From an uncultured Gammaproteobacteria bacterium (lineage in GTDB: Bacteria > Patescibacteriota > Patescibacteriia > UBA11705), in contig CAYPSS010000003.1 of the NCBI GenBank assembly GCA_964413735.1, positions 106,626 through 170,625 of the forward strand: a stretch of 64,000 nucleotides of DNA. Reading direction: 5' to 3'. Under the pieces are notes generated by a model. The model had not been told where the DNA came from. It made no database searches and saw only the letters and a list, made by a program, of their open reading frames with translations. This document shows, piece after piece, positions 10,409 to 56,369 of this stretch (within the stretch, counting starts at the first letter, position 1; every line of letters starts with the position of its first letter). Position numbers and translations under genes: made by a program.

Positions 10409-10418
10409 CAATTTTGGC

Positions 10419-10447
10419 TTGACTTTTTTTGGTTTTAGTGGTACAAT
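10419..10447 (+). promoter_or_regulatory. Sigma70-like promoter (TTGACT-17-TGgTACAAT) for micro-ORF
   Basis: ttgact at 10419-10424, 17-nt spacer, extended -10 tggtacaat. GGAGGTG SD then ATG at 10475. Confidence 0.45.
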
Positions 10448-10474
10448 GTTGATGCACTTTGGAGGTGTTTTCCC

Positions 10475-10573
10475 ATGGATTGGCTCTTGCGACGCGAAAA
10501 TTGGAAATGGGGTGCTTTGATTCTGGTGGTCATTCATTTGCTGGTGTTTCTGGGAGTCGGTTTCTCGGTTTAA
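10475..10573 (+). CDS. 32-aa single-TM micro-protein (MDWLLRRENWKWGALILVVIHLLVFLGVGFSV)
   Basis: Own promoter, SD GGAGGTG 7 nt upstream, hydrophobic helix, immediately followed by a terminator. Below the 60-aa ORF-track threshold. Confidence 0.4.
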   Translation: MDWLLRRENWKWGALILVVIHLLVFLGVGFSV

Positions 10574-10583
10574 TTGTTTTGAT

Positions 10584-10607
10584 AAATCTCGTAAAACGAG
10601 ATTTTTT
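10584..10607 (+). terminator. Rho-independent terminator
   Basis: aaatctcg-taaaa-cgagattt stem-loop followed by tttttt. Confidence 0.6.
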
Positions 10608-10639
10608 CGTTAAATTAGATAAATTATATTGAGATAAAC

Positions 10640-10667
10640 TTGACAAATTTAGTGGATTTGCTATAAT
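10640..10667 (+). promoter_or_regulatory. Sigma70-like promoter (TTGACA-16-TGcTATAAT) for GC-rich ORF
   Basis: Consensus -35 and extended -10. Only about 8 nt of leader before ATG 10682, with no SD. Confidence 0.45.
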
Positions 10668-10681
10668 GCGTTTGCTGCAAA

Positions 10682-10990
10682 ATGGCAGTCGTTCTTCTCT
10701 TTCAGGAGGTTTCTGTGGAAGGCGTGGCCAGTGTTCCGGTTGTTCAGGGTGAGGTTCCGGCGCCGACCGAGGCTCCTCTGCCGCAGTTGTCGGTGGATCA
10801 GGAGATTCAGATTCGGAATGTCCTACGCGACATCCTCGAGCGCTGCGAGCGCCCGAGCGACGTCAAGCGTGCGGTCATCCGGCGGCTCGGCGGGAAGTAC
10901 ACTTTCCCGGCGCCGACGGTGATCTGCCGTAAGTCACAGCGACTGGTGGCGATCAAGATCGGCGACCAGGAGATCAGCGTCGAATTGTAA
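10682..10990 (+). CDS. GC-rich 102-aa hypothetical protein with foreign-like codon usage (possible DEK-C-like helical domain)
   Basis: Very GC-rich compared with flanks. Strong GC3 periodicity (GAC ATC CTC GAG CGC TGC GAG CGC CCG AGC GAC GTC AAG). The other two frames give Arg-rich junk. Motif EIQIRNVLRDILE...SDVKRAVIRRLGGKY. Flanked by promoter and terminator. Confidence 0.5.
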   Translation: MAVVLLFQEVSVEGVASVPVVQGEVPAPTEAPLPQLSVDQEIQIRNVLRDILERCERPSDVKRAVIRRLGGKYTFPAPTVICRKSQRLVAIKIGDQEISVEL

Positions 10991-10997
10991 TCTTGAT

Positions 10998-11022
10998 AGC
11001 AGATCAAATGATCTGCTTTTTT
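10998..11022 (+). terminator. Rho-independent terminator
   Basis: agcagatca-aa-tgatctgct perfect stem followed by tttttt. Confidence 0.65.
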
Positions 11023-11057
11023 GTTTGATTGATGTTTTTCACGTTTTATTTTTTAAT

Positions 11058-11370
11058 ACTTGTCCCACTTGTTTTGCTTATTACTTTCTTGCTTACAGCT
11101 TTCTTTATTCTACAGCTCAGACTCTGAAACAAGTTCAGAGTGAGAATATGGTTTTTATTTTTATTCCCTCATTTCCTAATTCTTAATCCCTTTTAATACT
11201 CGTTTCACTCGTATTACTTGTCCCACTTGTTTTGCTTATTACTTTCTTGCTTGCCGCTTTCTTGATTCAACAGCTCAGACTCTGAAACAAGTTCAGAGTG
11301 AGAAGATAACTTGTTTTACTTGTCTTGCTTATCACTTTCTTGCTTACTACTTACTTGTTGTCTGCTTCGA
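11058..11370 (+). repeat. Direct repeat array: two approximately 88-bp copies (11058-11145, 11216-11303; about 84/88 identical) plus a degenerate third copy, each containing a hairpin
   Basis: The copies begin acttgtcccacttgttttgcttattactttcttgctt and end cagctcagactctgaaacaagttcagagtgaga. Inner inverted repeat actctgaa/ttcagagt with loop acaag. Period about 158 bp. No ORF. Confidence 0.7.
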
Positions 11371-11483
11371 CTTGCTTCGCCCGCATAGCGAGGCGAGCGC
11401 TGCTCAGCATGACAACATGATTGACGAATTGTTTTTTTTATGATAATTATTGGTTGGGAATTCTTCAAAAAAGGAGAGCGAAA

Positions 11484-18985: not shown

Positions 18986-24790
<5,805 letters not shown>

Positions 24791-30083: not shown

Positions 30084-30776
30084 ATGTTGCGAAAATACCT
30101 TATTATATCAGTCGGTGGCTCAATTATTATTCCCAAAACCGGTTTTGATATTAATTTTTTGAAAAAATTTAAGCAATTGATTATTGATGGCACTAAGCAA
30201 GGTTATAAGTTTATTTTGGTGGTTGGTGGTGGGTCCACTTGTCGTCAGTATAATGAAGCATTAAAGCAAGTAGTGCCGGTAGCTACTTCAATTTTAGATT
30301 GGCAAGGTATCAAAATAACCAGAATAAACGCTGAACTGGTAAGAAATTTTTTTGGTAAATTGGCTTATCCGCAAATAATTGAAAATCCGCAAAAAAAAAT
30401 TAAAACTAATAGCAAAATTTTGCTTTCCGGAGGTTGGAAACCAGGTCGTTCTACTGATGATGTGGCGGTGCGTTTAGCAATTACTTATGGTGCAGATACG
30501 GTGATTAATTTGTCCAATATTGATTATGTATATGACAGTGATCCGCGTCAAAATCCTCAAGCCAAACCAATAAAAAACATTTCGTGGAACAATTTTCGCC
30601 AAAATATTTTGAAGTCTGATAAATGGATCCCCGGTGCAAATTTGCCTTTTGATCCCACGGCCAGTAAGAATGCGCAAAAAGCCGGTTTGCAAGTGATTTG
30701 TATGAATGGTAGAAAAATAGCTTATTTGAAACAATATTTGGAAAAAGGTAAAATTTGCGGAACATTGATATCATGA
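30084..30776 (+). CDS. pyrH: Amino-acid-kinase-family protein, likely archaeal-type UMP kinase
   Basis: ISVGGS N-terminal P-loop-like motif and LVVGGGS motif. About 230 aa, as for archaeal-type UMP kinases. Assignment tentative. Confidence 0.5.
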   Translation: MLRKYLIISVGGSIIIPKTGFDINFLKKFKQLIIDGTKQGYKFILVVGGGSTCRQYNEALKQVVPVATSILDWQGIKITRINAELVRNFFGKLAYPQIIENPQKKIKTNSKILLSGGWKPGRSTDDVAVRLAITYGADTVINLSNIDYVYDSDPRQNPQAKPIKNISWNNFRQNILKSDKWIPGANLPFDPTASKNAQKAGLQVICMNGRKIAYLKQYLEKGKICGTLIS

Positions 30777-31321
30777 ATTTTATGAAAGTATTATTACATA
30801 TTTGTTGTGCGCCTTGTGGTGCTTATATTATTCAAGAATTGAAAAAACAATTTGAAGAAGTGATAGCTTATTTTTATAATCCTAATATTTTTCCTGAAGA
30901 AGAATATGAACATCGATACGGAGAAGTGAAACGCTATTGTGATTTGCAAAAAGTTGAATTAATCAAAGGGGTTTATGAACATGACCATTGGCAAGAACAT
31001 ATTAAAGGTTTGGAATTGGAACCGGAAAAAGGCAAGCGTTGTGAAAAGTGCTTTACCTTGCGATTATCAGAAGTAGCGCAAAAAGCTTTTGAAGTAGGTT
31101 GTTCACATTTTGCCACAACTTTGACTATGGGCCGACAAAAACCGGCATCAATGATCAATGAAATCGGGCATGAAGTTGGGCAAGTTTATGGAGTAGAATT
31201 TATTGATCGAGTGTGGCGTCAAGGTGGTGGGCAGGAACTTGGCAAACAAATTTCCGATGAATGTCAATTTCATCGTCAAGATTATTGTGGTTGTGAGTAT
31301 TCAATACGATCCGAAAAATAA
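30773..31321 (+). CDS. queH: Epoxyqueuosine reductase QueH (DUF208)
   Basis: Hallmark LLHICCAPC motif and further conserved Cys. ATG overlaps the upstream TGA. Confidence 0.7.
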   Translation: MNFMKVLLHICCAPCGAYIIQELKKQFEEVIAYFYNPNIFPEEEYEHRYGEVKRYCDLQKVELIKGVYEHDHWQEHIKGLELEPEKGKRCEKCFTLRLSEVAQKAFEVGCSHFATTLTMGRQKPASMINEIGHEVGQVYGVEFIDRVWRQGGGQELGKQISDECQFHRQDYCGCEYSIRSEK

Positions 31322-33412: not shown

Positions 33413-34387
33413 ATGCCCGAACTATTTTCCCAAAAATTAAGAGCCAATTTCACCCCTGAACAGCAGGATTATTATTTGCTATTGGTAAATGAATTAAAAG
33501 AACTTTTGAATGGTCAAACGCAAGAGGAAGTACTTGCCAGTGGCGATCCGGAAATTATCCAACAAATTTTGAAGATCAAGCAAGAAATGCTTAATTTTGT
33601 GTTAACCAAGAAAACTAGGGAAATGACTAGGCAAGAGGAGAAAGCAAAATTAGAGCAAGAAAAACGATCAATTAGTTTAGATGAAATTGAAAGAAAACAA
33701 AAGGCGGGTGAAGAATTAACTGATAATGAATTGAAGTTTTTGTATCGGATTGATGGACTTGGTTTGTCTTTTTCATCTAGTAATGAAGATAAAAAACGAG
33801 TAGAAGATATTATAAATCAACGAAATATTAAGGAAGATGTTTCTTATGTTTTAGGTTGTTCAGAAGATCAAGTGAGTTTAACAACACAAGAGTTTTTAGC
33901 TGGGACAGACATTGTTTATCATTTTGGATTTCTTGATTTAGAAAGGATAACAAGCACTAAAGGATTACAATTACCGCAAAGTATTGGTGGAGGTCTTAAT
34001 TTAAGCCGTCTAACGAGCGCTGAAGGTTTACAATTACCGCAAAGTATTGGTGGAGGTCTTTATTTAGGCAGTTTAACGAGCGCTGAAGGATTACAATTAC
34101 CACAAAGTATTGATGGGGGTCTTTATTTAGGCAGTCTAACAAGCGCTGAAGGTTTACAATTACCGCAAAGTATTGGAGGAGATCTTGATTTAGAAAGGAT
34201 AACAAGCGCTAAAGGATTACAATTACCTCAAAGTATTGGAGGAAGTCTTTATTTAATGAATCTAAGGAGCGCTGAAGGATTAGAAATTCCCCTGGGTGTT
34301 AAATCGATTTATTTTGAAAAAATGTCAGATTATGAAATTGAAAAATTAAAGAAAAAATTTCCGCATATAAAGGTGAATAAAATATAA
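33413..34387 (+). CDS. Paralog 1 of a tandem family: conserved N-terminus, coiled coil, LRR-like 21-aa repeat core (5.5 tandem copies), conserved C-terminus
   Basis: MPELFSQKLRANFTPEQQDYYL...LTDNELKFLYRIDG, then repeats TSAEGLQLPQSIGGGLYLGSL, C-terminus KKFPHIKVNK. Confidence 0.6.
   Translation: MPELFSQKLRANFTPEQQDYYLLLVNELKELLNGQTQEEVLASGDPEIIQQILKIKQEMLNFVLTKKTREMTRQEEKAKLEQEKRSISLDEIERKQKAGEELTDNELKFLYRIDGLGLSFSSSNEDKKRVEDIINQRNIKEDVSYVLGCSEDQVSLTTQEFLAGTDIVYHFGFLDLERITSTKGLQLPQSIGGGLNLSRLTSAEGLQLPQSIGGGLYLGSLTSAEGLQLPQSIDGGLYLGSLTSAEGLQLPQSIGGDLDLERITSAKGLQLPQSIGGSLYLMNLRSAEGLEIPLGVKSIYFEKMSDYEIEKLKKKFPHIKVNKI
33928..34292 (+). repeat. In-frame 63-bp tandem repeat (about 5.5 copies) inside paralog 1
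   Basis: Near-identical units with single-nucleotide variants (e.g. aagcgctgaaggtttacaattaccgcaaagtattggaggagatcttgatttagaaaggataac). Confidence 0.8.
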
Positions 34388-34388
34388 T

Positions 34389-35336
34389 ATGCCCGAACTA
34401 TTTTCTCAAAAATTAAAAGCCAACTTCACCCCTGAACAGCAGGATTATTACTTGCAATTGGAAAATGAATTAAAAGAACTTTTAGGCGGTCAAACGCAGG
34501 AGGAAGTACTGGCTGGTGGTGATCCGGAAATTATCCAAAAAATTTTGGAGATAAAGCAGGAAATGCTTAATTTTGTGTTAACCAAGAAGACCAGGGAAAT
34601 GGTGAAACAAGAAGAAAAAGAACAAGAAGAAAGAATATTGAGACAAAGAGAAAAAGAATTAGAAAAAGAAAGACAAGCAGTAAGTTTAGATGAAATAGAA
34701 AGAAAGCAAAAGGCGGGAGTAAGATTGACTGATAATGAACTAAAGTTTTTATATCGGATTGATGGATTTGGATTATCTTCTATTTCTTCTGCTCATGAGC
34801 GTGCTTTGGCAACTCGAATAATTGAAAATAGAGATATAAAACAAGATATAATTCAAGTTTTAAATTGTAAAGATTATCAAGTTAGATCTTCGGTATTGAA
34901 TTATGCAAGAGATGAAGATATTGAATATTGTTTTGAAAGTTTGTATTTAGCGCATATAGGTTCCGGGCAAGGTTTGTATTTGCCAAAAAGAATCAAGGGA
35001 AATTTGGATTTAGGTGGGATTATAAATCCTCAAGGTTTAAAATTACCGGAAAGTGTTGGCGGTGTTCTTGACCTTAGGAAATTAAATACTGTTGAAAACT
35101 TAAAATTACCCAAGTATATTAACTATGATTTACTTTTGGATGGAATTATCACTACTAAAGGATTGAAATTACCCATTTTTATTGGAGGAAAATTGTATTT
35201 ACGACGATTAAGAAAGGTTGATGAATTGGAAATTCCATTAGGAGTAAAAACTGTCGTATTTTCGCTAGGTGTTTCTGACGCTCAAGTGGAAAAAATTTCT
35301 AAAAAGTTTCCTCATGTTACTTTTGAACGAGAGTAA
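34389..35336 (+). CDS. Paralog 2 of the tandem family (divergent repeat core)
   Basis: Same N-terminus (MPELFSQKLKANFTPEQQDYYLQLENELKELLGG...) and the same C-terminal KKFPH motif. Middle has degenerate about 21-aa LKLP-type repeats. Confidence 0.6.
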   Translation: MPELFSQKLKANFTPEQQDYYLQLENELKELLGGQTQEEVLAGGDPEIIQKILEIKQEMLNFVLTKKTREMVKQEEKEQEERILRQREKELEKERQAVSLDEIERKQKAGVRLTDNELKFLYRIDGFGLSSISSAHERALATRIIENRDIKQDIIQVLNCKDYQVRSSVLNYARDEDIEYCFESLYLAHIGSGQGLYLPKRIKGNLDLGGIINPQGLKLPESVGGVLDLRKLNTVENLKLPKYINYDLLLDGIITTKGLKLPIFIGGKLYLRRLRKVDELEIPLGVKTVVFSLGVSDAQVEKISKKFPHVTFERE

Positions 35337-35340
35337 TCTT

Positions 35341-36417
35341 ATGTTTGAAACACTTTCTCAAAAATTAAAAGCCAATTTCACTCCCGAACAGCAGGATTAT
35401 TACTTGCAATTGGAAAATGAATTAAAAGAACTTTTGGGCGGTCAAACGCAGGAGGAAGTACTTGCCAGTGGCGATCCGGAAATTATCCAACAAATTTTGA
35501 AGATCAAGCAAGAAATGCTTAATTTTGTGTTAACCAAGAAGACCAGGGAAATGGTGAAACAAGAAGAAAAAGAACAAGAAGAAAGAATATTGAGACAAAG
35601 AGAAAAAGAATTAGAAAAAGAAAGACAAGCAGTAAGTTTAGATGAAATAGAAAGAAAGCAAAAGGCGGGAGTAAGATTGACTGATAATGAACTAAAGTTT
35701 TTATATCGGATTGATGGATTTGGTTTGCCTTCTTTATCTAGTTATGAGAATAAAAAACGAGTAGAAAAGATTATAAATCAACGAAATGTTAAGGAAGATG
35801 TTTCTTATGTTTTAGGTTGTTTTGAAGATCAAGTAAGTTTAACGCAAGATCAGTTTTTAGACGGTGTAGATATCGAATATCATTATGGTAATTTAGATTT
35901 TCGAAATTTAAATATTTTATCTGATTGGCAATTACCCAAATATATTCATGGAACTCTTGATTTGGGTGGGTTAACTGAAGGATCAAATATAATTAATAGT
36001 CAATTACCTCAAGGCATAGGTTATACTTTGAATATGGAGAGATTGTGGTCAGCTGTTGATTTGGTTTTTCCTAAATATGTGGGCGATTTCAATATTATGA
36101 ACCTAACCAGAATTGAAAATGTTAAATTCCCTTATCGAGTTGCCGGTGATTTTCATGTTAGTTGTTTGTTAATGAAAAAAGGAGTTGAATTACCAAAGAT
36201 TATTTTAGGTAGCATTTATTTGTATGGTACAAGATTGCCGAGTGATTTTGAAATACCGAAAAATTTTGAGGGAAGATTGGTGTTTGATGCTTTGACCAGT
36301 TCAGAAGGTCTAGAAATACCATTCGGCGTTAAATCAGTTATTTTTTACATGATGCCAATTGATGAAATTGAAAAATTAAGAAAAAAATTCCCACATTCAA
36401 ATTTTGAAAAAAATTAA
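35341..36417 (+). CDS. Paralog 3 of the tandem family (mosaic of paralog 1- and 2-like segments)
   Basis: ATG at 35341. N-terminal about 400 nt nearly identical to paralog 2, with short blocks identical to paralog 1. C-terminal KKFPHSNFEKN. Confidence 0.6.
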   Translation: MFETLSQKLKANFTPEQQDYYLQLENELKELLGGQTQEEVLASGDPEIIQQILKIKQEMLNFVLTKKTREMVKQEEKEQEERILRQREKELEKERQAVSLDEIERKQKAGVRLTDNELKFLYRIDGFGLPSLSSYENKKRVEKIINQRNVKEDVSYVLGCFEDQVSLTQDQFLDGVDIEYHYGNLDFRNLNILSDWQLPKYIHGTLDLGGLTEGSNIINSQLPQGIGYTLNMERLWSAVDLVFPKYVGDFNIMNLTRIENVKFPYRVAGDFHVSCLLMKKGVELPKIILGSIYLYGTRLPSDFEIPKNFEGRLVFDALTSSEGLEIPFGVKSVIFYMMPIDEIEKLRKKFPHSNFEKN

Positions 36418-45707: not shown

Positions 45708-47102
45708 TTAATATTCGGAAAAAGAGGGAAGATTACCACCATGATTTTTGTCCAAGGTTTTGAAACTGGCTTGGGCGGAATCAAAGAAAAAGCGAATAAT
45801 GCCGGTGGGACCATTACGATGCTTGGCAATGTGTAATTCGGCAATTGATTTTTCTTCGGGGGTTAAATCTTCTATATTGTAATTACGATCGGCGGATTTT
45901 CGATAAATAAACAGCACAATGTCCGCGTCTTGTTCAATTGAGCCTGATTCGCGCAAATGAGCTAATTTCGGGATAGCCGGTTTACTCATTTCCACGGCGC
46001 GCGATAACTGTGATAAGGCTAGAACCGGGACATCGAGCTCACGAGCGATTTGTTTGAGTGACCGGGTTATTTCCGCCACTGCCTGTACTCGATTTTCCGC
46101 GCCGGTACGAGCTTCCATTAATTGTAAATAATCAATGACAATTAAGCCAAGTCCATGTTCCATTTTTAATCGTCTGGCTTTGGTGCGAACATCAATCACA
46201 TTGATAGCAGCGGAATCATCAATAAATATCGGAGCTTCTGATAAGATGCCCATGGCATGGCCCAAACGAGGGAAATCATCGGAGTCTTCACGTGTCGAAA
46301 GTTTACCGGTTCGAATTTTCCATAAATCAATGTTGCTTTCGGCGCATAGCATACGATCAACCAATTGTTCCTTTGACATTTCCAAGCTGAAATAGCCGAC
46401 CGGAATTTTTGATTTCACGGCTACTTGACGAGCAATATCAAGGGCGAGAGATGTTTTACCAACCGAGGGGCGGGCGGCTAAAATAATTAAGTCTGATTTT
46501 TGTAATCCGGCTAAATGAGTATCCAGATCAGGATAACCGGTTGGTACGCCACGCATTTGCCCGGCATTTTTATGTAAATCATCTATTCGATCAAAAGCAT
46601 CATTCAAAACATTTTTAATGGGAATAAAAGACTTTTTTTGGTTTTTTTGTGAAACGGAAAAAAGTTCTTGTTCAGCATCATCAATGATTTTGTCTACTTC
46701 ATCATCTTCTTTGTAGCCAAGTTCATTGATTTTATTAGCGGCATTAAGTAGACGACGCAGAGTGGCTTTTTTGGTAATAATTTTCGCGTAATTGGTGGCA
46801 TTACTGGACGTGACAACCGTATTGGTTAATGCCACTAAATAAGTTTTTCCACCCACTTGGTCCAATAGTTTTCGCTCTTCTAATAAATTGGCCAAAGTTA
46901 AAATATCAATCGGTTCATGAGCAGAGTATAGGTCCAGCATGGCGGAATAAATTTTGTTGTGATTATCCTTGTAAAAATCGTCAGCCGTAATTATGTCAGC
47001 AATCCGATAAAATGCTTCGTTATCAATTAAAATAGAGCCGAGTAATGATTGTTCGGCTTCTACATTTTGGGGTGGAATCTTGTTTAAGAGATTGTCTGAC
47101 AT
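45708..47102 (-). CDS. dnaB: Replicative DNA helicase DnaB
   Basis: N-terminal DnaB domain, Walker A ARPSVGKTSLAL, RecA-like core. 464 aa, no intein. Confidence 0.9.
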   Translation of the reverse strand: MSDNLLNKIPPQNVEAEQSLLGSILIDNEAFYRIADIITADDFYKDNHNKIYSAMLDLYSAHEPIDILTLANLLEERKLLDQVGGKTYLVALTNTVVTSSNATNYAKIITKKATLRRLLNAANKINELGYKEDDEVDKIIDDAEQELFSVSQKNQKKSFIPIKNVLNDAFDRIDDLHKNAGQMRGVPTGYPDLDTHLAGLQKSDLIILAARPSVGKTSLALDIARQVAVKSKIPVGYFSLEMSKEQLVDRMLCAESNIDLWKIRTGKLSTREDSDDFPRLGHAMGILSEAPIFIDDSAAINVIDVRTKARRLKMEHGLGLIVIDYLQLMEARTGAENRVQAVAEITRSLKQIARELDVPVLALSQLSRAVEMSKPAIPKLAHLRESGSIEQDADIVLFIYRKSADRNYNIEDLTPEEKSIAELHIAKHRNGPTGIIRFFFDSAQASFKTLDKNHGGNLPSFSEY

Positions 47103-47186: not shown

Positions 47187-47215
47187 TTGACAAAATATTG
47201 TTAATATGTTATAAT
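47187..47215 (+). promoter_or_regulatory. Consensus sigma70 promoter (TTGACA-17-TATAAT) driving the GC-rich RNA element
   Basis: ttgaca at 47187-47192, 17-nt spacer, tataat at 47210-47215. Confidence 0.5.
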
Positions 47216-47221
47216 GTTCGC

Positions 47222-47597
47222 GCAGTATCCACATGGAAGTGGAATGTGTGTGTTTTCCTCGAACGTCGCTGGAGGGAGGCCGTGATCAGAGGTCCGCCGT
47301 AACCAAGCAATTGGTTACAGCCCAAAAGCAGTCTGGGCTTGATAATGCGACTGTTAGTTTTCGAGGCGCGGGGTCAGTTGGCCGAATTGGCGCCGGATTT
47401 AACTCGAGAACGACTGTTTATAACAATTTGGCAAGGAGGAAGGGTGACAACGTTGCTGGAACCGTGCTAAAAAGAAGGGTTAGCGACGGACCTGAGCCAA
47501 GTCGTCGTCGTAAATCAGGCCGCATTCGGGGGAGGAACGGTGAGAACGTGGCTGATGACGTATTAATTTGAACCAATGTCTGAGACATTGGTTTTTT
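47222..47597 (+). ncRNA. Candidate structured ncRNA (about 375 nt, GC-rich; class unresolved, RNase P RNA is one possibility)
   Basis: GC-rich block in an AT-rich genome between a consensus promoter and the terminator aaccaatgtctgagacattgg+tttttt. The embedded 112-aa ORF has no GC3 bias, rare AGG/AGA/CGA codons and a low-complexity basic product. Perfect 8-bp stem with GNRA loop (guaaccaa-GCAA-uugguuac). Nested helices ucgag[ggcgc..gcgcc]cucga. Hairpin agccca..ugggcu. Long-range complements cgucgcu/agcgacg and aggucccg-like agguccg/cggaccu. Confidence 0.5.
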
Positions 47598-47624
47598 CGT
47601 TTTAAAATTATTATTTTCAATAAC

Positions 47625-48488
47625 TTAATTTTTGTTTTGTTGGTGATATAAGTCAATGGTGTTTTTCAATAAAAAAGCTATGGTCATTGGGCCAACGCCT
47701 CCCGGAACCGGTGAAATAAAAGAAGTTTTGAGCATGACATTATCAAAATCAACATCACCAACGGTTTTGTCGCCCAGTTTATTGATTCCAATATCAATTA
47801 CCACTGCGCCTTGTTTAACAAATTCATTGGTCACATATTGTGGTCGTCCGATAGCCACAATTAAAATATCTGCGTCGTGACATTTATTTTGAGCGTTTAG
47901 ATCATCGGGGTGAACATATTCAACAATATTTTTTTGTCCATATAAATAATTAAATGGTATGGCGATTAAATCATGGTTGGCCAGCACGACAATTTTTTTG
48001 TTTTCCAGGTTAATTTTGGTTTCTTGAATCATGGCATCAACGCCCAGGGTCAAAGGAGATAAAATACTTGGCTTTCCTATTTTGATTTTGGCTAAGTTTT
48101 CCGGATGAAAGCCATCAACATCTTTGTTGGGAGCAATGGCATTGATAATTTTAGATTCATCTAATTTTTCCGGTAAAGGCAATTGGACTAAAATGGCGTT
48201 GATTTCCGGGTCTTGATTTAGATATTGAATCACTTCGATAATTTGTTCATCCGAATAATTATCATGGAATTCATACAAATGAAAATCAATTCGCACTTTA
48301 TCGCAAGCCTTTTTTTTCAGGTTAACATAAAGTTTGGACGATGGATTGTCACCAACTAAAATTACGGCTACGCCGGGGGCGATTTTTTCTTGGAAAATTT
48401 GCGCGCAAGTTTGAGTATTGATGATTTCCGCCAGCAATGCCCCGTTAATTATTTGAGCGCCCAGTTTATCTTTGGGAATTTTCAGCAT
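47625..48488 (-). CDS. folD: Bifunctional methylenetetrahydrofolate dehydrogenase/cyclohydrolase
   Basis: Typical FolD length and motifs (GxGxxVG-type NAD(P) loop PGGVGPMT). Confidence 0.9.
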   Translation of the reverse strand: MLKIPKDKLGAQIINGALLAEIINTQTCAQIFQEKIAPGVAVILVGDNPSSKLYVNLKKKACDKVRIDFHLYEFHDNYSDEQIIEVIQYLNQDPEINAILVQLPLPEKLDESKIINAIAPNKDVDGFHPENLAKIKIGKPSILSPLTLGVDAMIQETKINLENKKIVVLANHDLIAIPFNYLYGQKNIVEYVHPDDLNAQNKCHDADILIVAIGRPQYVTNEFVKQGAVVIDIGINKLGDKTVGDVDFDNVMLKTSFISPVPGGVGPMTIAFLLKNTIDLYHQQNKN

Positions 48489-51442: not shown

Positions 51443-53323
51443 TTATTCAAAATAAAAGAATTTTTCATTACTGTAGATACCGCATTCATCACCATGATTC
51501 AGACAAACGCGGAAATAATAAGTTTGTCCGGGTGTTAAATCTGTCCACAAATAAGAAGTATCAGTTTCTGTAGTTAGCAATCGAAATTCAGCGGTCGGGA
51601 AGGTTGGCTTGGGATCAGTGGACATTAATAATTTATAGCCTTTGGGTGCGGTGGTATTGGCAATCGACCAATTAAGATTAATAGCCTCGCCATTAATTTG
51701 TCCGTTCAAAGTAATTATGCCGGTTTGTTGTTCTTCCGTGGGAATGGTAATTGATAAATTATTACTGTAAAGCAAACATTCGTTATTTTGATAGGCACAA
51801 ACTCGGAAATGATAAGTCCCGGGATCTAATTCTTTCCACAAATGATTAAATTGATTTTTGGCCACCGTGTGGGCTGAGCTTTGCGGGAAGGTGGGATTGG
51901 GCGATTCGTTGATTACTATTTTGAATTCATTTATTTCATTATTGGTATATTGCCAATCAAGATTGACTTCACCGGCCACAACTTTACCGGTTAATACCAT
52001 TTTGTCGTCTTTGGGGTTGCCGATAATAATGGATTTTTCTTCACTGGTATATAGACATTTGCTTTCTCCTAAAATACAAACTTTTATATAATATTTTTTG
52101 TTATTTTCCACTTCAATGGAGGTGGCGGTATCGGTGGTCAGAGCATCAACCGATGAGGTGCCGGTCAGAGAAGTAAGTGGTGTGGTGGCATAATAAATTC
52201 GGAAGCCTTTGACATTTTCCATTTCGGTATTACTTTTCCAAGTAACGGAAATTTTATTTTCCTGTGAAGTGAGATTTACATCAAGGGGTGATTGAGCTTG
52301 ATCAAATTTCACATAAATGATTTGCTTGTTTAATTTGCTACCCAGTTTAACGGTAATTTCAATTTGATTATCGCCGGTAGTGAGTAAATAAGGATATTCA
52401 AATTGTCCGGCGTTGTTTTTTACTTCCTTTCCGCTAATATATATTTCCGCTTGGGGATCAGTTGTGCCTTTGATGATTAAATTTTCCAAATTAGTGGTAA
52501 AATCGTTTTTTTGCGGTTCTAAAATTTTCAGTTCAACATTGGCCTCATATAATCCCATGATCAAACCAGCGGTTTCGTCTTGTTCTTTGTTCCAAACCAA
52601 CCACGAATTTGCCAGAAAATCCGTAATTTGTTTTTTTTCTGAGGTGATCATTTCAGTTGTGGGTTTACTCAAATCAATTGTGGCGATTTCACTTTGTTCA
52701 ATGGTGCGCATATTGATAATGTTGTCACTTCCGGGGGCGTCAAAAATTTTAACTTTAATTCGGCTTTCAATTACCGCCAAAGAAATTTGGTTATTTTGTA
52801 TGCCGGTATTAAATCCGGTTCCCAGGGCGGTGAATTCCACTTGGTTGATTTTGACACGATAAATAGCCGGACTGGAGTCATTGATGCGATGATAAATATT
52901 GCCTGATTTTTGTTCAATAATTATTTCACCGGGAGAAAATTTTTCAAAGTAGACTTCGGTGTTTTGATCCATACGCAGTAAGCTGTTATCCGGTAATTGG
53001 ACTATTGCCTTGCTATCCTTTTCGGTTTTAATGGTATCACCGGTAGTGATTTTTTGATTGGATTCCAGTAATGCCCATTCATCTTTTTTTATCCATAATG
53101 AACCTTTGACAAAAGTAATGGTGCCGGCCTCAAAAGTATTTTTTTGTTCCAGGTCTTGTAATGATTCGGTTGGTTTTTCCGGGGCGGTGACAATTGCCCA
53201 AATCACAAAGCCGATTAAACCGATCAAGATGGCTGACAAAAACAAAAAACCCGATGATTTGTAGAATGGTTGTTTGTAAAAATTTTTGTTTTGTCGGGAA
53301 TTAAATGACGAGTATACTTGCAT
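51443..53323 (-). CDS. Membrane-anchored FecR-like domain protein with three fibronectin-III-like repeats
   Basis: N-terminal TM. FecR-like segment (GDTIKTEKDSKAIVQLPDNSLLRMDQNTEV). Three repeats each ending in a (Y/F)xFRVC...EC-type pattern. Confidence 0.55.
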   Translation of the reverse strand: MQVYSSFNSRQNKNFYKQPFYKSSGFLFLSAILIGLIGFVIWAIVTAPEKPTESLQDLEQKNTFEAGTITFVKGSLWIKKDEWALLESNQKITTGDTIKTEKDSKAIVQLPDNSLLRMDQNTEVYFEKFSPGEIIIEQKSGNIYHRINDSSPAIYRVKINQVEFTALGTGFNTGIQNNQISLAVIESRIKVKIFDAPGSDNIINMRTIEQSEIATIDLSKPTTEMITSEKKQITDFLANSWLVWNKEQDETAGLIMGLYEANVELKILEPQKNDFTTNLENLIIKGTTDPQAEIYISGKEVKNNAGQFEYPYLLTTGDNQIEITVKLGSKLNKQIIYVKFDQAQSPLDVNLTSQENKISVTWKSNTEMENVKGFRIYYATTPLTSLTGTSSVDALTTDTATSIEVENNKKYYIKVCILGESKCLYTSEEKSIIIGNPKDDKMVLTGKVVAGEVNLDWQYTNNEINEFKIVINESPNPTFPQSSAHTVAKNQFNHLWKELDPGTYHFRVCAYQNNECLLYSNNLSITIPTEEQQTGIITLNGQINGEAINLNWSIANTTAPKGYKLLMSTDPKPTFPTAEFRLLTTETDTSYLWTDLTPGQTYYFRVCLNHGDECGIYSNEKFFYFE

Positions 53324-53378: not shown

Positions 53379-54959
53379 TTATTTCTCTTGAGAAAGTTTT
53401 TTCACCATATAAGTGCCAACCAAGCGATAACCCAGTTTGCGATAATAAGCGCGGACTCCGATACCGGAAATTACCGCTATTTTCTCCAGTCCGTGTTGTC
53501 GGGCTAACTCTTCGGCCTTGGCTACTAATTTTTTGCCAAACCCCAAGTGTTGAATGGCTTGATTGTTTGATTGATCAATCCCAACCATTTGACCGTAAGT
53601 GTGGACTTCGCGAATAATGGCGCAATTTTTTAATTCGGGAATATAAACATTGGCCGGATCATTGATTCTTAAGCGCAAAAAAGCGTAAAGAATTTTTTTG
53701 TTGGACGAGCGATAACTTAAGAAATATTCCAAGCCGTCAGAAGCCGGATACTTTTCCAAATAAAAACGTGCTTTGTCAGCTCCGGAAATATTGCCCCGTG
53801 CTTCACGACAGCGAATGCATTTACACCATTGATTTTGCTCGGATAATTTTTGTTGTAAAACTTGTCGTAAATTGGTCATCTGATTGCCGGCTTGAATACT
53901 TTCTTTGGGAATATCACGAATCAAGCGAATGATTCTCACATAATCGGGGATTTGTAATTTCATTTTCAATAATAAATCAATCAATTGTTTATCAGAATAC
54001 GGTCGATATTTGTTTTGTTTCCACCAACTATAAAGTTTGGAATCTTTGGTGACCACGGTCGGATAAATTTTCAGCATGTCTGGCTGGTAGTCACTTAAGT
54101 TAAATAAATCGTGAAACATTTTCAAATCCTTGGTCGGAGTGGCGCCGGGTAAATTAGGCATCATGTGATAAGTGACTTTGAAACCGGCTTGTTTCATTAA
54201 TTTGGTGGCTTTGATGGTTTGTTCATTGGTGCTACCGCGGTGATTGAGCGTTAATATCTTGTTGTCAATGGCTTGAACACCGATTTCGATTCTGGTACAG
54301 CCTAAGCGACGAAAATTAAGCAATTCTTTTTCATTGATATAATCAGGACGAGTTTCCAGTGTTAGCCCGATAATTCGATGTTTAGCGGTTTCATTCCATT
54401 TCTGTGCTTGTTCAAGATCTTTGGCGATTCGTATATTGCAAGCGTCAAAACAGCGTTTAATAAACCAAGTTTGATATTGACGCGGGAAATAATTAAAAGT
54501 CCCACCCATGACAATCAGTTCAATTTTGTCGGTGGCGTGGCCGTTTTTGGTTAGAGCAAATATTCTAGTTTTAACTTGGGCAAAAGGATCAAACTTCAAA
54601 CGAATGGCACGCATGACTGCCGGTTCGTTAGACAAATAGCTTTTGGGCATTTGTTTTTCCGTAGGACAAAAAGCACATTTGCCGGGACAGGGATAATGTT
54701 TGGTCAAAACCGCAATCGGCGCAACGCCCGACATGGTACGAATGGCGCGTTTACGAAGTAATCGTGCAATTTCCGGTCGGGGGGTAATTTTTTTCTTTTT
54801 TACTTGTTCTAGATAATATGCCAAAAGAGACGCATTGGTGATGTTGGGTTTTTTATATTTATCAGCTAAGCGATTTTTGATTTTTTTTAAGCGGTTTTGA
54901 TTGGGAACCTTGGCTGATAAAAGAGCGTGTAAAATTGAATCTAAATATTCGTTTTTCAT
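53379..54959 (-). CDS. elp3: Elp3-like radical SAM + GNAT acetyltransferase (tRNA uridine-34 modification homolog)
   Basis: Radical-SAM CxxxCxxC (CPGKCAFCP), TIM-barrel-like core, C-terminal GNAT domain (GQMVGIDQSNNQAIQHLGFGKKLVAKAEELARQHG). 526 aa. Confidence 0.7.
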   Translation of the reverse strand: MKNEYLDSILHALLSAKVPNQNRLKKIKNRLADKYKKPNITNASLLAYYLEQVKKKKITPRPEIARLLRKRAIRTMSGVAPIAVLTKHYPCPGKCAFCPTEKQMPKSYLSNEPAVMRAIRLKFDPFAQVKTRIFALTKNGHATDKIELIVMGGTFNYFPRQYQTWFIKRCFDACNIRIAKDLEQAQKWNETAKHRIIGLTLETRPDYINEKELLNFRRLGCTRIEIGVQAIDNKILTLNHRGSTNEQTIKATKLMKQAGFKVTYHMMPNLPGATPTKDLKMFHDLFNLSDYQPDMLKIYPTVVTKDSKLYSWWKQNKYRPYSDKQLIDLLLKMKLQIPDYVRIIRLIRDIPKESIQAGNQMTNLRQVLQQKLSEQNQWCKCIRCREARGNISGADKARFYLEKYPASDGLEYFLSYRSSNKKILYAFLRLRINDPANVYIPELKNCAIIREVHTYGQMVGIDQSNNQAIQHLGFGKKLVAKAEELARQHGLEKIAVISGIGVRAYYRKLGYRLVGTYMVKKLSQEK

Positions 54960-54961
54960 GT

Positions 54962-55570
54962 TTATTGACCGATTTGGAGGTTGCTTAAATCATTGTTGGT
55001 AATTCCCAGACCGAGATTGCGCATAATTTCAAAGGCATGAATCGGTCGTCCGAGAAAATATCGTTGACCATTATCCGGATTAATATACCACGCTTCACCG
55101 CGACTTTCAACTTGAAGCAAAATTCGGCCTTTCAGGCGCTCGATTAATTGGTAATCAATTTTATCGGGAAATTTGCCCGGACCGTTGGGATTATAACCGT
55201 TAATAAGCTCTTGTTTATCATTAAAAGAATCATCATCGGTGTCTTTGTTATATTTATTGGTACCAATGGCATCTTCCAAAAGATCAACCAATCCATCATT
55301 ATCACTGTCGGTTCCGGATTGGGCGATTAGACCGATCGGGATTTTATTAAGATTTTCCGTGGTGATTCCCAGACCGAATCGGCGCATTAAATTAAAGGCA
55401 TCATCGGGTCGGCCCAAATAATAGCGTAAATTATTTAATGGATTAACATACCAAGCTTCGCCGTTTTCCTCTACTTGCAACAAAATTTTACCCGATAAAT
55501 TAGTAGCACCTATTGTCATGAATGGAATACCTAAAAATAATATAAACAAAACAAAAATTTTTTTTCGCAT
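54962..55570 (-). CDS. Secreted protein with an internal about 55-aa duplication flanking thrombospondin-type-3-like Asp-rich Ca-binding repeats
   Basis: Signal peptide. Duplicated module GKILLQVEENGEAWYVNPLNNLRYYLGRP... / GRILLQVESRGEAWYINPDNGQRYFLGRP.... Central TDSDNDGLVD and DTDDDSFND motifs. Confidence 0.55.
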   Translation of the reverse strand: MRKKIFVLFILFLGIPFMTIGATNLSGKILLQVEENGEAWYVNPLNNLRYYLGRPDDAFNLMRRFGLGITTENLNKIPIGLIAQSGTDSDNDGLVDLLEDAIGTNKYNKDTDDDSFNDKQELINGYNPNGPGKFPDKIDYQLIERLKGRILLQVESRGEAWYINPDNGQRYFLGRPIHAFEIMRNLGLGITNNDLSNLQIGQ

Positions 55571-55625
55571 ATTTTGCTTTTGAATAATGTTTATGTTTTA
55601 ATATAATTGAATTATAACAAAAAAT

Positions 55626-56369
55626 ATGACAATAGACAAAAATCATGGCTGGCTTCGAAAAATCAAGGATGGTTATGATAAAATCGCCGGGCAATTTGCT
55701 CAATCACGTAATTATGTGTGGCGCGATAGTGTGGTTTTCTTGGATTATATCAAAGACAATGATCGGGTTTTGGATTTGGGTTGTGGTAATGGACGTTTGG
55801 TCCCATTATTAAGAAAAAAAAACATTGATTATGTTGGGGTTGATGCCAGTCAGGAATTGATTAAAATTGCGGGGCAAAATTTTCCGGAACTTGATTTTCA
55901 AACATTGAACGCCGTTGATTTGGATGATTTTCTGGGTGAGTTTAATGCAATTGTTAGTGTTTCCATGCTTAATCATTTAACTTCTGAATATCATGGGTTA
56001 GTATTTAAAAAAGTTTTTGATCGTTTAGTGCCCGGTGGTTATTTCTTGCTTTCCAATTGGAATATGTGGAATGAGAATAACAAAAAAGGTGTTAAATATT
56101 TTCAAAAAATCAAACAACAATTAACCGATGAGAATTTTCAAGAAAAATATGGGGTGACGAAAAATGAATTACAGGACAATGAAGTTTTGACTTTATGGGG
56201 AGATGAGCAGGTTCCTTTGTATTATTATGCCTTTACTATTGAAGAATTGAAAGATTTGGCGGAAAAAAACAATTTTGAAATTATCAAGTTATATTATTCT
56301 CAAAATGGTCAGTCGGTTGATCAAAGGCAGGCGGAAAATATAGTGGGAATTTTTCGGAAAATTGTGTAG
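55626..56369 (+). CDS. Class I SAM-dependent methyltransferase
   Basis: Motif I VLDLGCGNGR, acidic motif II, about 250 aa. Confidence 0.7.
   Translation: MTIDKNHGWLRKIKDGYDKIAGQFAQSRNYVWRDSVVFLDYIKDNDRVLDLGCGNGRLVPLLRKKNIDYVGVDASQELIKIAGQNFPELDFQTLNAVDLDDFLGEFNAIVSVSMLNHLTSEYHGLVFKKVFDRLVPGGYFLLSNWNMWNENNKKGVKYFQKIKQQLTDENFQEKYGVTKNELQDNEVLTLWGDEQVPLYYYAFTIEELKDLAEKNNFEIIKLYYSQNGQSVDQRQAENIVGIFRKIV

Follow-up and report, generated by a model that had tools for sequence, protein, structure and literature searches.

The elp3 locus

We analyzed a stretch of 64,000 nucleotides of contig CAYPSS010000003.1 (hereafter the window) that encodes, at 53379..54959 on the minus strand, a protein of the Elp3 family. 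In a preliminary description of this DNA, the gene had been read as a full-length fusion of a radical S-adenosylmethionine (SAM) domain and a GNAT acetyltransferase domain, and hence as Elp3. A gene for a class I SAM-dependent methyltransferase that resembles Trm9 lies close by in divergent orientation. The features of the locus are as follows.

53379..54959, minus strand: Elp3 coding sequence, an open reading frame (ORF) of 526 amino acids plus stop codon, with a full-length match to TIGR01211 and matches to Elp3 proteins of the PDB
54744..54959, minus strand: basic N-terminal extension of Elp3 (residues 1-72; 19 Lys/Arg versus 5 Asp/Glu), presumed tRNA-binding arm
53844..54743, minus strand: radical SAM domain (residues 73-372; Radical_SAM, residues 91-275; Radical_SAM_C, residues 293-372)
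54666..54689, minus strand: [4Fe-4S] cluster motif C91-x3-C95-x2-C98, with all Cys invariant in 120/120 sequences
53808..53825, minus strand: zinc-binding motif C379-x-C381-x2-C384 (CKCIRC) in the interdomain linker, invariant in 120/120 sequences
53382..53807, minus strand: KAT/GNAT acetyl-CoA-binding domain (residues 385-526) with the QHLGFG motif, E451, H453, and Y505 (Acetyltransf_1, residues 466-511)
54962..55570, minus strand: secreted repeat protein of 202 amino acids between Elp3 and the methyltransferase, 2 nt from Elp3, without a Pfam family
55571..55625, both directions: divergent intergenic region of 55 bp with promoter-like hexamers both ways, which are consensus matches only, in AT-rich DNA
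55626..56369, plus strand: Trm9-like class I SAM-dependent methyltransferase of 247 amino acids, assigned by Pfam methyltransferase domains, a PDB match to Trm9, and linkage to Elp3

The Elp3 ORF starts with ATG, and the CPGKCAFCP motif, which the preliminary description had pointed out, was found at residues 91-99. A Pfam scan detected both catalytic domains in the one chain, with scores of 66 bits for Radical_SAM, 78 for Radical_SAM_C, and 25.2 for Acetyltransf_1 (cutoff 20.7), and the NCBIfam model for Elp3, TIGR01211, matched profile positions 2-522 of 522 with 563 bits (cutoff 350, E = 4e-169). No better match to another radical-SAM subfamily without a GNAT domain was found; the runner-up family, MnmL/YtqA, scored 68 bits (cutoff 180), and no HemN-like family reached 37 bits. 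When the protein was searched against PDB sequences, the strong matches were Elp3 proteins only, namely MinElp3 of Methanocaldococcus infernus (437 bits, 44% identity), DmcElp3 of Dehalococcoides mccartyi (397 bits), and the mammalian and yeast proteins (approximately 325-344 bits). The assignment made earlier is thus borne out, and a true, intact Elp3 with radical-SAM and GNAT/KAT domains in one chain is fully supported by these sequence comparisons. The product name that NCBI gives to TIGR01211 contains the words '5-carboxymethylaminomethyl modification'. This name is chemically misleading, because the experimentally shown product of Elp3 is 5-carboxymethyl-uridine (cm5U), whereas 5-carboxymethylaminomethyl-uridine (cmnm5U) is the product of MnmE/MnmG (PMC7663514).

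The catalytic residues of the window Elp3 are intact. We surveyed them in an alignment of the window protein with its 119 closest homologs (120 sequences) and MinElp3, the published MinElp3 numbering being anchored on the zinc motif of the PDB-derived sequence. The cluster residues C91, C95, and C98 align with the cluster cysteines of MinElp3 and DmcElp3. Mutagenesis of MinElp3 showed that K150, K266, Q461, and Y517 are required for tRNA-induced acetyl-CoA hydrolysis (Lin et al., PMC6367351). The equivalents of the two lysines (K145 and K261 in the window protein) are invariant in all 120 sequences, as is H453, which corresponds to MinElp3 H463. At the Y517 position, 90 sequences, the window protein among them (Y505), have Tyr and 29 have Phe, so that 119 of the 120 carry one or the other. 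At the Q461 position, Glu was found throughout (120/120; E451 in the window protein), and because DmcElp3 also has Glu there (VRELHVYG), we regard it as a normal variant. The zinc cysteine motif is kept in bacterial and archaeal Elp3 and is missing in eukaryotes (PMC6367351).

The basic extension of 72 residues at the N-terminus is presumed to be the tRNA-binding arm. In MinElp3, the N-terminal region is needed for tight tRNA binding (approximately 30-fold tighter), and DmcElp3 is without such a region (PMC6367351). The cluster motif of the window protein has the spacing CX3CX2C with a short loop, as in DmcElp3; most archaeal Elp3 proteins have CX4 spacing, and MinElp3 has CX4CX2C together with a five-residue insertion. 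We considered CX3CX2C as an exclusively bacterial signature and rejected it, because it also occurs in six of 120 archaeal-type sequences, of which the three with examined gene context were archaeal.

The gene content of the window indicates a bacterial host of Candidate Phyla Radiation (CPR)-like appearance. It includes NAD-dependent LigA, MurB, a Mur ligase, an MraY-like protein, DnaB, RecR, L21, and SecA, which runs off the end, as well as GatA, GatC, a prepilin peptidase, and a pilin of the type IV secretion system type. A homolog search with the window Elp3 returned at least 7,995 proteins at E <= 1e-10. The best 120 of them are 55-70% identical to the window protein; every one with an organism name belongs to Patescibacteria, Falkowbacteria, or Parcubacteria, and many are already called Elp3. 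By these homologs, the host is placed in Patescibacteria (CPR). One pattern-limited scan, with one genome per species, yielded 53 Elp3 loci, whose informative titles were almost all those of Patescibacteria classes, with one Dehalococcoidia fragment in addition. The classes comprise Falkowbacteria (64% identity), Uhr-, Buchanan-, Kuenen-, Morani-, and Gribaldobacteria, and Paceibacterota. With thousands of homologs and 53 species-level loci, Elp3 is common in Patescibacteria; the gene itself is ordinary for this group and has already been named by NCBI automatic annotation. The earlier statement that Elp3 is uncommon in bacteria therefore holds for cultured bacteria and for the specialist reviews, in which bacterial Elp3 is a Dehalococcoides oddity (PMC7663514, PMC6367351), but not for Patescibacteria, where it is widespread. 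A 2026 paper uses the wording 'numerous bacteria' (PMC13315578). Our literature searches gave no report of Elp3 in CPR/Patescibacteria, of a bacterial Trm9, or of the MnmE/MnmG status in CPR.

Many metagenome-assembled genomes among the loci (L002, L004, L008, L021, and others) have an Elp3 that is 50-63% identical to the window protein and bear the titles 'uncultured Gammaproteobacteria' or 'uncultured Candidatus Saccharibacteria'. Judged by gene content and Elp3 relatedness, these titles seem to be placeholders or taxonomic errors and are unfit for inferring distribution.

The methyltransferase linked to Elp3

A homolog of the window methyltransferase lies beside Elp3 in 43 of the 53 loci, that is, in 43 of the 47 that have at least 800 bp of upstream sequence. 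In 35 of these loci, the two genes stand head to head, with at most 300 bp, and often close to 0 bp, from start to start; four loci have a divergent pair separated by an inserted gene, and in another four the pair is convergent, with the methyltransferase downstream. After clustering of 2,246 ORFs from the 53 loci and the window, the methyltransferase was the sole conserved neighbor family (42 loci). The next was a Mur ligase (15 loci), which heads the lesser clusters together with NIF3, a permease, PGM, a racemase, RmuC, and ClpB. Linkage of the methyltransferase to Elp3 persists down to 44% Elp3 identity and across rearrangements, with the other neighbors changing. We also sought a third conserved partner, such as Trm112 or a thiolation enzyme, among the same clustered ORFs, and none was found. 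Neither Elp3-methyltransferase nor methyltransferase-Trm112 fusions occurred among the best 150 of 1.84 billion representative proteins; four long proteins in this search have WecG domains, NUDIX domains, or extensions without annotation. The methyltransferase family amounts to 1,758 representative clusters (50% identity) at E <= 1e-30 and is publicly named only 'class I SAM-dependent methyltransferase' or UbiE-like.

In the window, the intergenic region in front of the methyltransferase contains promoter-like sequences in both directions, which are consensus matches in AT-rich DNA: TTGAAT-16-TATAAT at 55580-55607 on the plus strand, and TTGTCT-17-TATAAT with a TG extension at 55639-55611 on the minus strand. 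The gene for the 202-amino-acid protein, which separates this region from Elp3, is probably co-transcribed with Elp3. Such a protein adjoins Elp3 in only one of the 53 loci, and its gene is a lineage-specific insertion outside the Elp3/methyltransferase module. In the protein, a signal or transmembrane segment at the N-terminus precedes two internal repeats of approximately 55 residues (consensus G[KR]ILLQVE..GEAWY.NP...RY.LGRP..AF..MR..GLGIT), which are joined by an Asp-rich, calcium-binding-like linker.

The substrate-binding half of the methyltransferase shows a similarity specific to Trm9. The best PDB sequence match of the window protein was Trm9 (5cm2_Z). Because a full-length profile of the family favored Trm9 by only approximately 1 bit, we used instead a profile of the substrate-binding C-terminal half, from which the SAM-binding half had been removed. 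Among 177,635 PDB sequences, Trm9 was the sole significant match of this profile (E = 2.2e-5), and the next match had E = 0.16. An AlphaFold2 model of a methyltransferase homolog has a predicted local distance difference test score of 92.7.

In yeast Trm9 (ScTrm9), alanine mutants of R29, D72, H116, W145, W168, R241, Y243, and N271 are inactive (PMC4678810). Conservation of these residues in 69 Elp3-linked methyltransferases was 65/69 for R29, 69/69 for D72, 62/69 for H116, 66/69 for W145, 58/69 for W168, and 53/69 for R241; the Y243 position has 38 Tyr and 12 Phe, and the probable equivalent of N271 was found in 61/69. The family consensus keeps all eight residues and the window methyltransferase seven of eight, N271 probably among them. 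Its R28, H117, W145, W191, Y200, and N238 are the equivalents of ScTrm9 R29, H116, W145, W168, Y243, and N271, and the SAM-binding Asp (ScTrm9 D72) and the class I fold are present as well. Two control methyltransferases, PH0226 and 3sm3, keep 4/7 and 2/7 of the Trm9 residues. Furthermore, the N-terminal Y-x10-R-x3-W spacing of the window enzyme is that of Y29, R40, and W44 in the Yarrowia enzyme (YlTrm9).

Other genes were also seen in the neighborhood of Elp3. An RtcB RNA ligase gene lies within approximately 8 kb of Elp3 in six of the 53 loci (for example, L008 15304..16818), which may reflect a loose tRNA-metabolism neighborhood or chance. In archaeal Elp3 loci, we observed a Urm1/ThiS-like gene (L057 and L058, 5583..5876) and, in L061 (356..1351), the gene of an Ncs6/TtuA-type PP-loop ATPase with a zinc ribbon, directly beside Elp3. 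These sulfur-relay genes fit a pathway of the mcm5s2U type in those archaea, and no such linkage to Elp3 was seen in the Patescibacteria loci.

A candidate mcm5U34 pathway and its alternatives

We consider it likely that the window Elp3 makes cm5U at tRNA position 34 (cm5U34) and that its divergent neighbor is a carboxyl methyltransferase of the Trm9 type, which would convert cm5U34 into the 5-methoxycarbonylmethyl derivative (mcm5U34); Patescibacteria would then possess an archaeal/eukaryotic-type pathway. In the proposed sequence of events, the basic N-terminal arm and the interdomain cleft of Elp3 would bind the anticodon stem-loop of a U34 tRNA, the [4Fe-4S] cluster held by C91/C95/C98 would reductively cleave SAM to generate a 5'-deoxyadenosyl radical, and the KAT domain would bind acetyl-CoA, whose hydrolysis the tRNA would trigger. 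An acetyl-derived radical would add to C5 of U34 to form cm5U34, and the neighboring methyltransferase would use SAM to methyl-esterify this product to mcm5U34. For the window pair, we infer the chemistry, the tRNA substrates, and the mcm5U product. The cm5U chemistry is established for archaeal Elp3 and Elongator (PMC6367351, PMC7663514, PMC13315578), and conversion of cm5U to mcm5U is carried out by the Trm9-Trm112 complex of yeast and of Haloferax (PMC4678810, PMC6144793); mcm5U is a known product of archaeal Trm9 (PMC6144793). A more far-reaching version of this proposal, which we put forward tentatively as somewhat short of an even chance, is that a stand-alone Elp3 with its own basic arm and a Trm9-like enzyme, perhaps Trm112-free, form a self-contained two-gene module across Patescibacteria that makes mcm5U34. 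Such a module would be the first pathway of this kind in Bacteria and might replace MnmE/MnmG in reduced genomes. None of MnmE, MnmG, and MnmA is encoded within the 64-kb window.

Several observations weigh against the mcm5U34 proposal. Known Trm9 enzymes depend on Trm112, and a Trm112-like zinc-knuckle ORF was found neither in the window nor among the conserved neighbors of the 53 Elp3 loci. With the full-length family profile, Trm9 scored 100 bits and two uncharacterized archaeal methyltransferases scored 99 and 98. The correspondence of N238 to Trm9 N271 was inferred rather than aligned, the PDB alignment ending one residue short of it. In the window methyltransferase, and likewise in eight close relatives, Trm9 R241 is replaced by Leu (Leu198), H115 by Asn (Asn116), and H244 by Tyr (Tyr201). 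The R241A mutant of ScTrm9 has approximately 1% of its activity left (PMC4678810), and the activity or specificity of the window sub-clade may differ from that of Trm9 owing to these three substitutions. On the side of Elp3, the Pfam model ELP3_N (PF23613) was not recognized in the N-terminal arm of the window protein nor in any of its 120 close homologs, while all 120 listed archaeal-type Elp3 proteins except one (P0254) carry it. The extension of the window protein is net-positive, yet it is unmatched by the archaeal model, so that both its homology to the archaeal arm and its function in tRNA binding are presumed. None of the six sampled archaeal Elp3 loci has a Trm9-like gene beside Elp3; the two genes do cluster in Sulfolobus (PMC2584109). 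Finally, no derivative of the xcm5U class has been demonstrated in any bacterium (PMC7663514).

Some of these points can also be accommodated if Elp3 is a genuine cm5U34 synthase and the methyltransferase is unrelated to it, with a small molecule, a protein, or a different position in RNA as its substrate; the two genes would then be adjacent because very compact genomes have inherited their order around a common divergent promoter. The unspecific public names of the family, the failure of full-length profile scores and fold searches to separate Trm9 from other class I methyltransferases, the missing R241 equivalent, the missing Trm112, and the archaeal loci just mentioned are all in keeping with such an arrangement. 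However, mere inheritance of gene order is difficult to reconcile with a linkage that is kept at 44% Elp3 identity and despite rearrangements (head to head in 35 loci, with an inserted gene in four, and convergent in four) while all other neighbors vary. The match of the substrate-binding-half profile to Trm9 alone, and the conservation in the Elp3-linked enzymes of Trm9 pocket residues beyond the SAM site that the controls lack, also argue against an unrelated methyltransferase, which we therefore regard as unlikely. A different function of Elp3 itself, that of a protein-lysine (histone-type) acetyltransferase, is suggested by the old annotation 'histone acetyltransferase, ELP3 family', by the database names that some homologs still bear, and by the GNAT/KAT domain in the window protein. 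This function is very improbable, because Elp3 enzymes from bacteria, archaea, and eukaryotes hydrolyze acetyl-CoA only in response to U34 tRNAs and not to peptides (PMC6367351), bacteria have no histones, the radical-SAM cluster motif and the presumed tRNA-binding arm are intact in the window protein, and the conserved partner of Elp3 resembles a tRNA methyltransferase.

We also considered whether the gene was gained recently from archaea or Dehalococcoidia, or whether the contig is archaeal or mis-binned, in which case it would be uninformative about the bacterial lineage. The top PDB match of the window Elp3 is indeed archaeal, and Elp3 is near-universal in archaea (PMC2584109). Against this, the flanking genes (NAD-dependent LigA, Mur ligase, MurB, SecA, DnaB, and RecR) are bacterial. 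The composition of the Elp3 gene is typical of the window (GC content, z = +0.9; codon-usage rank, 22/47), and the GC content and codon usage of the methyltransferase gene are also window-typical. We constructed a neighbor-joining tree of 241 sequences, consisting of the top 120 matches of each of two queries; it is unrooted, leaves out eukaryotes, and has biased sampling. In this tree, the 120 Patescibacteria Elp3 proteins form one exclusive clade with a mean within-clade distance of 0.45, whose mean distances to the archaeal set (0.91) and to DmcElp3 (0.93) are about equal; DmcElp3 is nearer to Methanocaldococcus-type Elp3 (0.72) than to the CPR clade. A phylogeny had been proposed at the outset as a means of deciding between horizontal transfer and vertical descent; the tree supports the separateness of the CPR clade and says nothing on rooting or transfer direction. 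The Elp3/methyltransferase pair is, moreover, syntenic across many Patescibacteria classes, and Patescibacteria Elp3 is without the archaeal ELP3_N signature. Composition, the exclusive clade, and conserved synteny disfavor a recent transfer and favor long residence in the lineage, so that a recent gain or a misplaced contig is hardly credible.

In the Elongator literature, bacterial Elp3 is a Dehalococcoides curiosity that lacks the tRNA-binding N-terminus and is barely active (PMC7663514, PMC6367351). Patescibacteria supply a large and diverse set of full-length bacterial Elp3 proteins with a basic N-terminal arm, and it is the Elp3/Trm9-like module, not Elp3 alone, that is worth following. 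The conserved Trm9-like partner, which is unannotated, leads to a specific prediction that can be tested, namely mcm5U34 in Patescibacteria, and contradicts the claim of a 2017 review that homologs of Trm112-dependent methyltransferases are not detectable in bacteria (PMC5372719). If reduced genomes do use Elp3 and Trm9 in place of MnmE/MnmG, this would be relevant to how minimal cells maintain wobble decoding and to how the Elongator pathway evolved.

Other features of the window and comparison with known systems

The preliminary description had also noted queH and taken its occurrence alongside Elp3 as a sign of an unusual repertoire of anticodon modifications. The queH gene is present at 30755..31321 and matches PF02677 over profile positions 1-174 of 175 with 200 bits (cutoff 23.5). 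It lies in surroundings that include a GatA-type amidase, with a UMP-kinase-like gene and UvrD as immediate flanks. As it is 22 kb from Elp3, has unrelated genes around it, and is absent from all 53 related Elp3 loci, we rejected the linkage of queH to Elp3, and the unusual repertoire drawn from it is not supported.

Several further regions of the window were recorded. Directly downstream of Elp3, at 51443..53323 on the minus strand, lies a gene for a predicted surface protein of 626 amino acids with a FecR domain, a glucodextranase-B-like domain, and several fibronectin-III-like repeats; it is beside Elp3 in two of the 53 loci and is thus not conserved. The ORF-free gap between dnaB (start at 47102, minus strand) and folD (stop at 47625, minus strand) contains a candidate unclassified non-coding RNA of approximately 370 nt at 47187..47600 on the plus strand. 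Its candidate promoter is a perfect one of the sigma-70 type (TTGACA at 47187, a 17-nt spacer, and TATAAT at 47210), its body is GC- and G-rich with repeated GGAGGAAGGGTGA/GGAGGAACGGTGA-like elements, and at its end, at 47571..47600, stands a canonical terminator, AACCAATGTCTGAGACATTGGTT followed by a T-run. The minimum free energy z-score of this region was -2.9 on the plus strand and -5.4 on the minus strand. Rfam gave no match to the candidate RNA even at E <= 1, neither a tRNA nor a transfer-messenger RNA was found in it, and no homolog occurred in the Elp3 loci compared. A 1,074-amino-acid ORF at 21566..24790 (plus strand) had no Pfam match at E <= 1e-5, and three consecutive ORFs of 324, 315, and 382 amino acids at 33413..36417 (plus strand) had none at E <= 1e-4; all are typical CPR 'dark' proteins. 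Approximately 1 kb at 10409..11420 has no ORF of at least 120 amino acids and no Rfam match at E <= 1, and the one plausible gene there is an ORF of 102 amino acids at 10682..10990.

Among known systems, MinElp3 (PDB 6ia8/6iaz/6iad) and Elp3 of Methanocaldococcus jannaschii share the radical-SAM and KAT architecture of the window protein and are monomeric, stand-alone enzymes. MinElp3, the top PDB match, also resembles it in the zinc cysteine triad, in the equivalents of K150, K266, H463, and Y517, and in a basic N-terminus of approximately 70 residues. The window Elp3 differs from MinElp3 in the short-loop CX3CX2C motif, in Glu in place of Q461, and in an N-terminus without an ELP3_N match. 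DmcElp3 (PDB 5l7j), the only characterized bacterial Elp3, has in common with the window protein a bacterial host, the CPGKC-x2-C motif with its spacer, Glu at the Q461 position, and the zinc triad. It has no N-terminal extension and binds tRNA weakly (PMC6367351), whereas the window Elp3 has the 72-residue basic arm, and a mean distance of 0.93 shows that DmcElp3 and CPR Elp3 are not close relatives. Eukaryotic Elp3, which works in the six-subunit Elongator (PDB 8ptx, 8avg, 6qk7), has the same two-domain core (325-344 bits) and presumably the same cm5U34 reaction. Unlike it, the window Elp3 has no Elp1, Elp2, or Elp4-6 partners and retains the zinc cysteine triad, which is absent in eukaryotes (PMC6367351).

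For the neighboring methyltransferase, the comparison is with Trm9 and its partner Trm112 (Yarrowia PDB 5cm2, yeast Trm9, the methyltransferase domain of human ALKBH8, and HvoTrm9). The neighbor shares the class I fold, the Y-x10-R-x3-W motif, and the equivalents of H116, W145, W168, Y243, and probably N271, and it is linked to Elp3, as is Trm9 in Sulfolobus (PMC4678810, PMC2584109). It differs from Trm9 in its low identity (approximately 20-25%), in Leu, Asn, and Tyr for R241, H115, and H244, in its bacterial host, and in that a Trm112 partner was not detected. The canonical bacterial pathway for modification of U34 at C5 (xm5U34), MnmE/MnmG with MnmC, has the same target, C5 of U34, and presumably the same role in decoding as Elp3, but its enzymes and chemistry are unrelated, as MnmE/MnmG use GTP, FAD, methylenetetrahydrofolate, and glycine to form cmnm5U.

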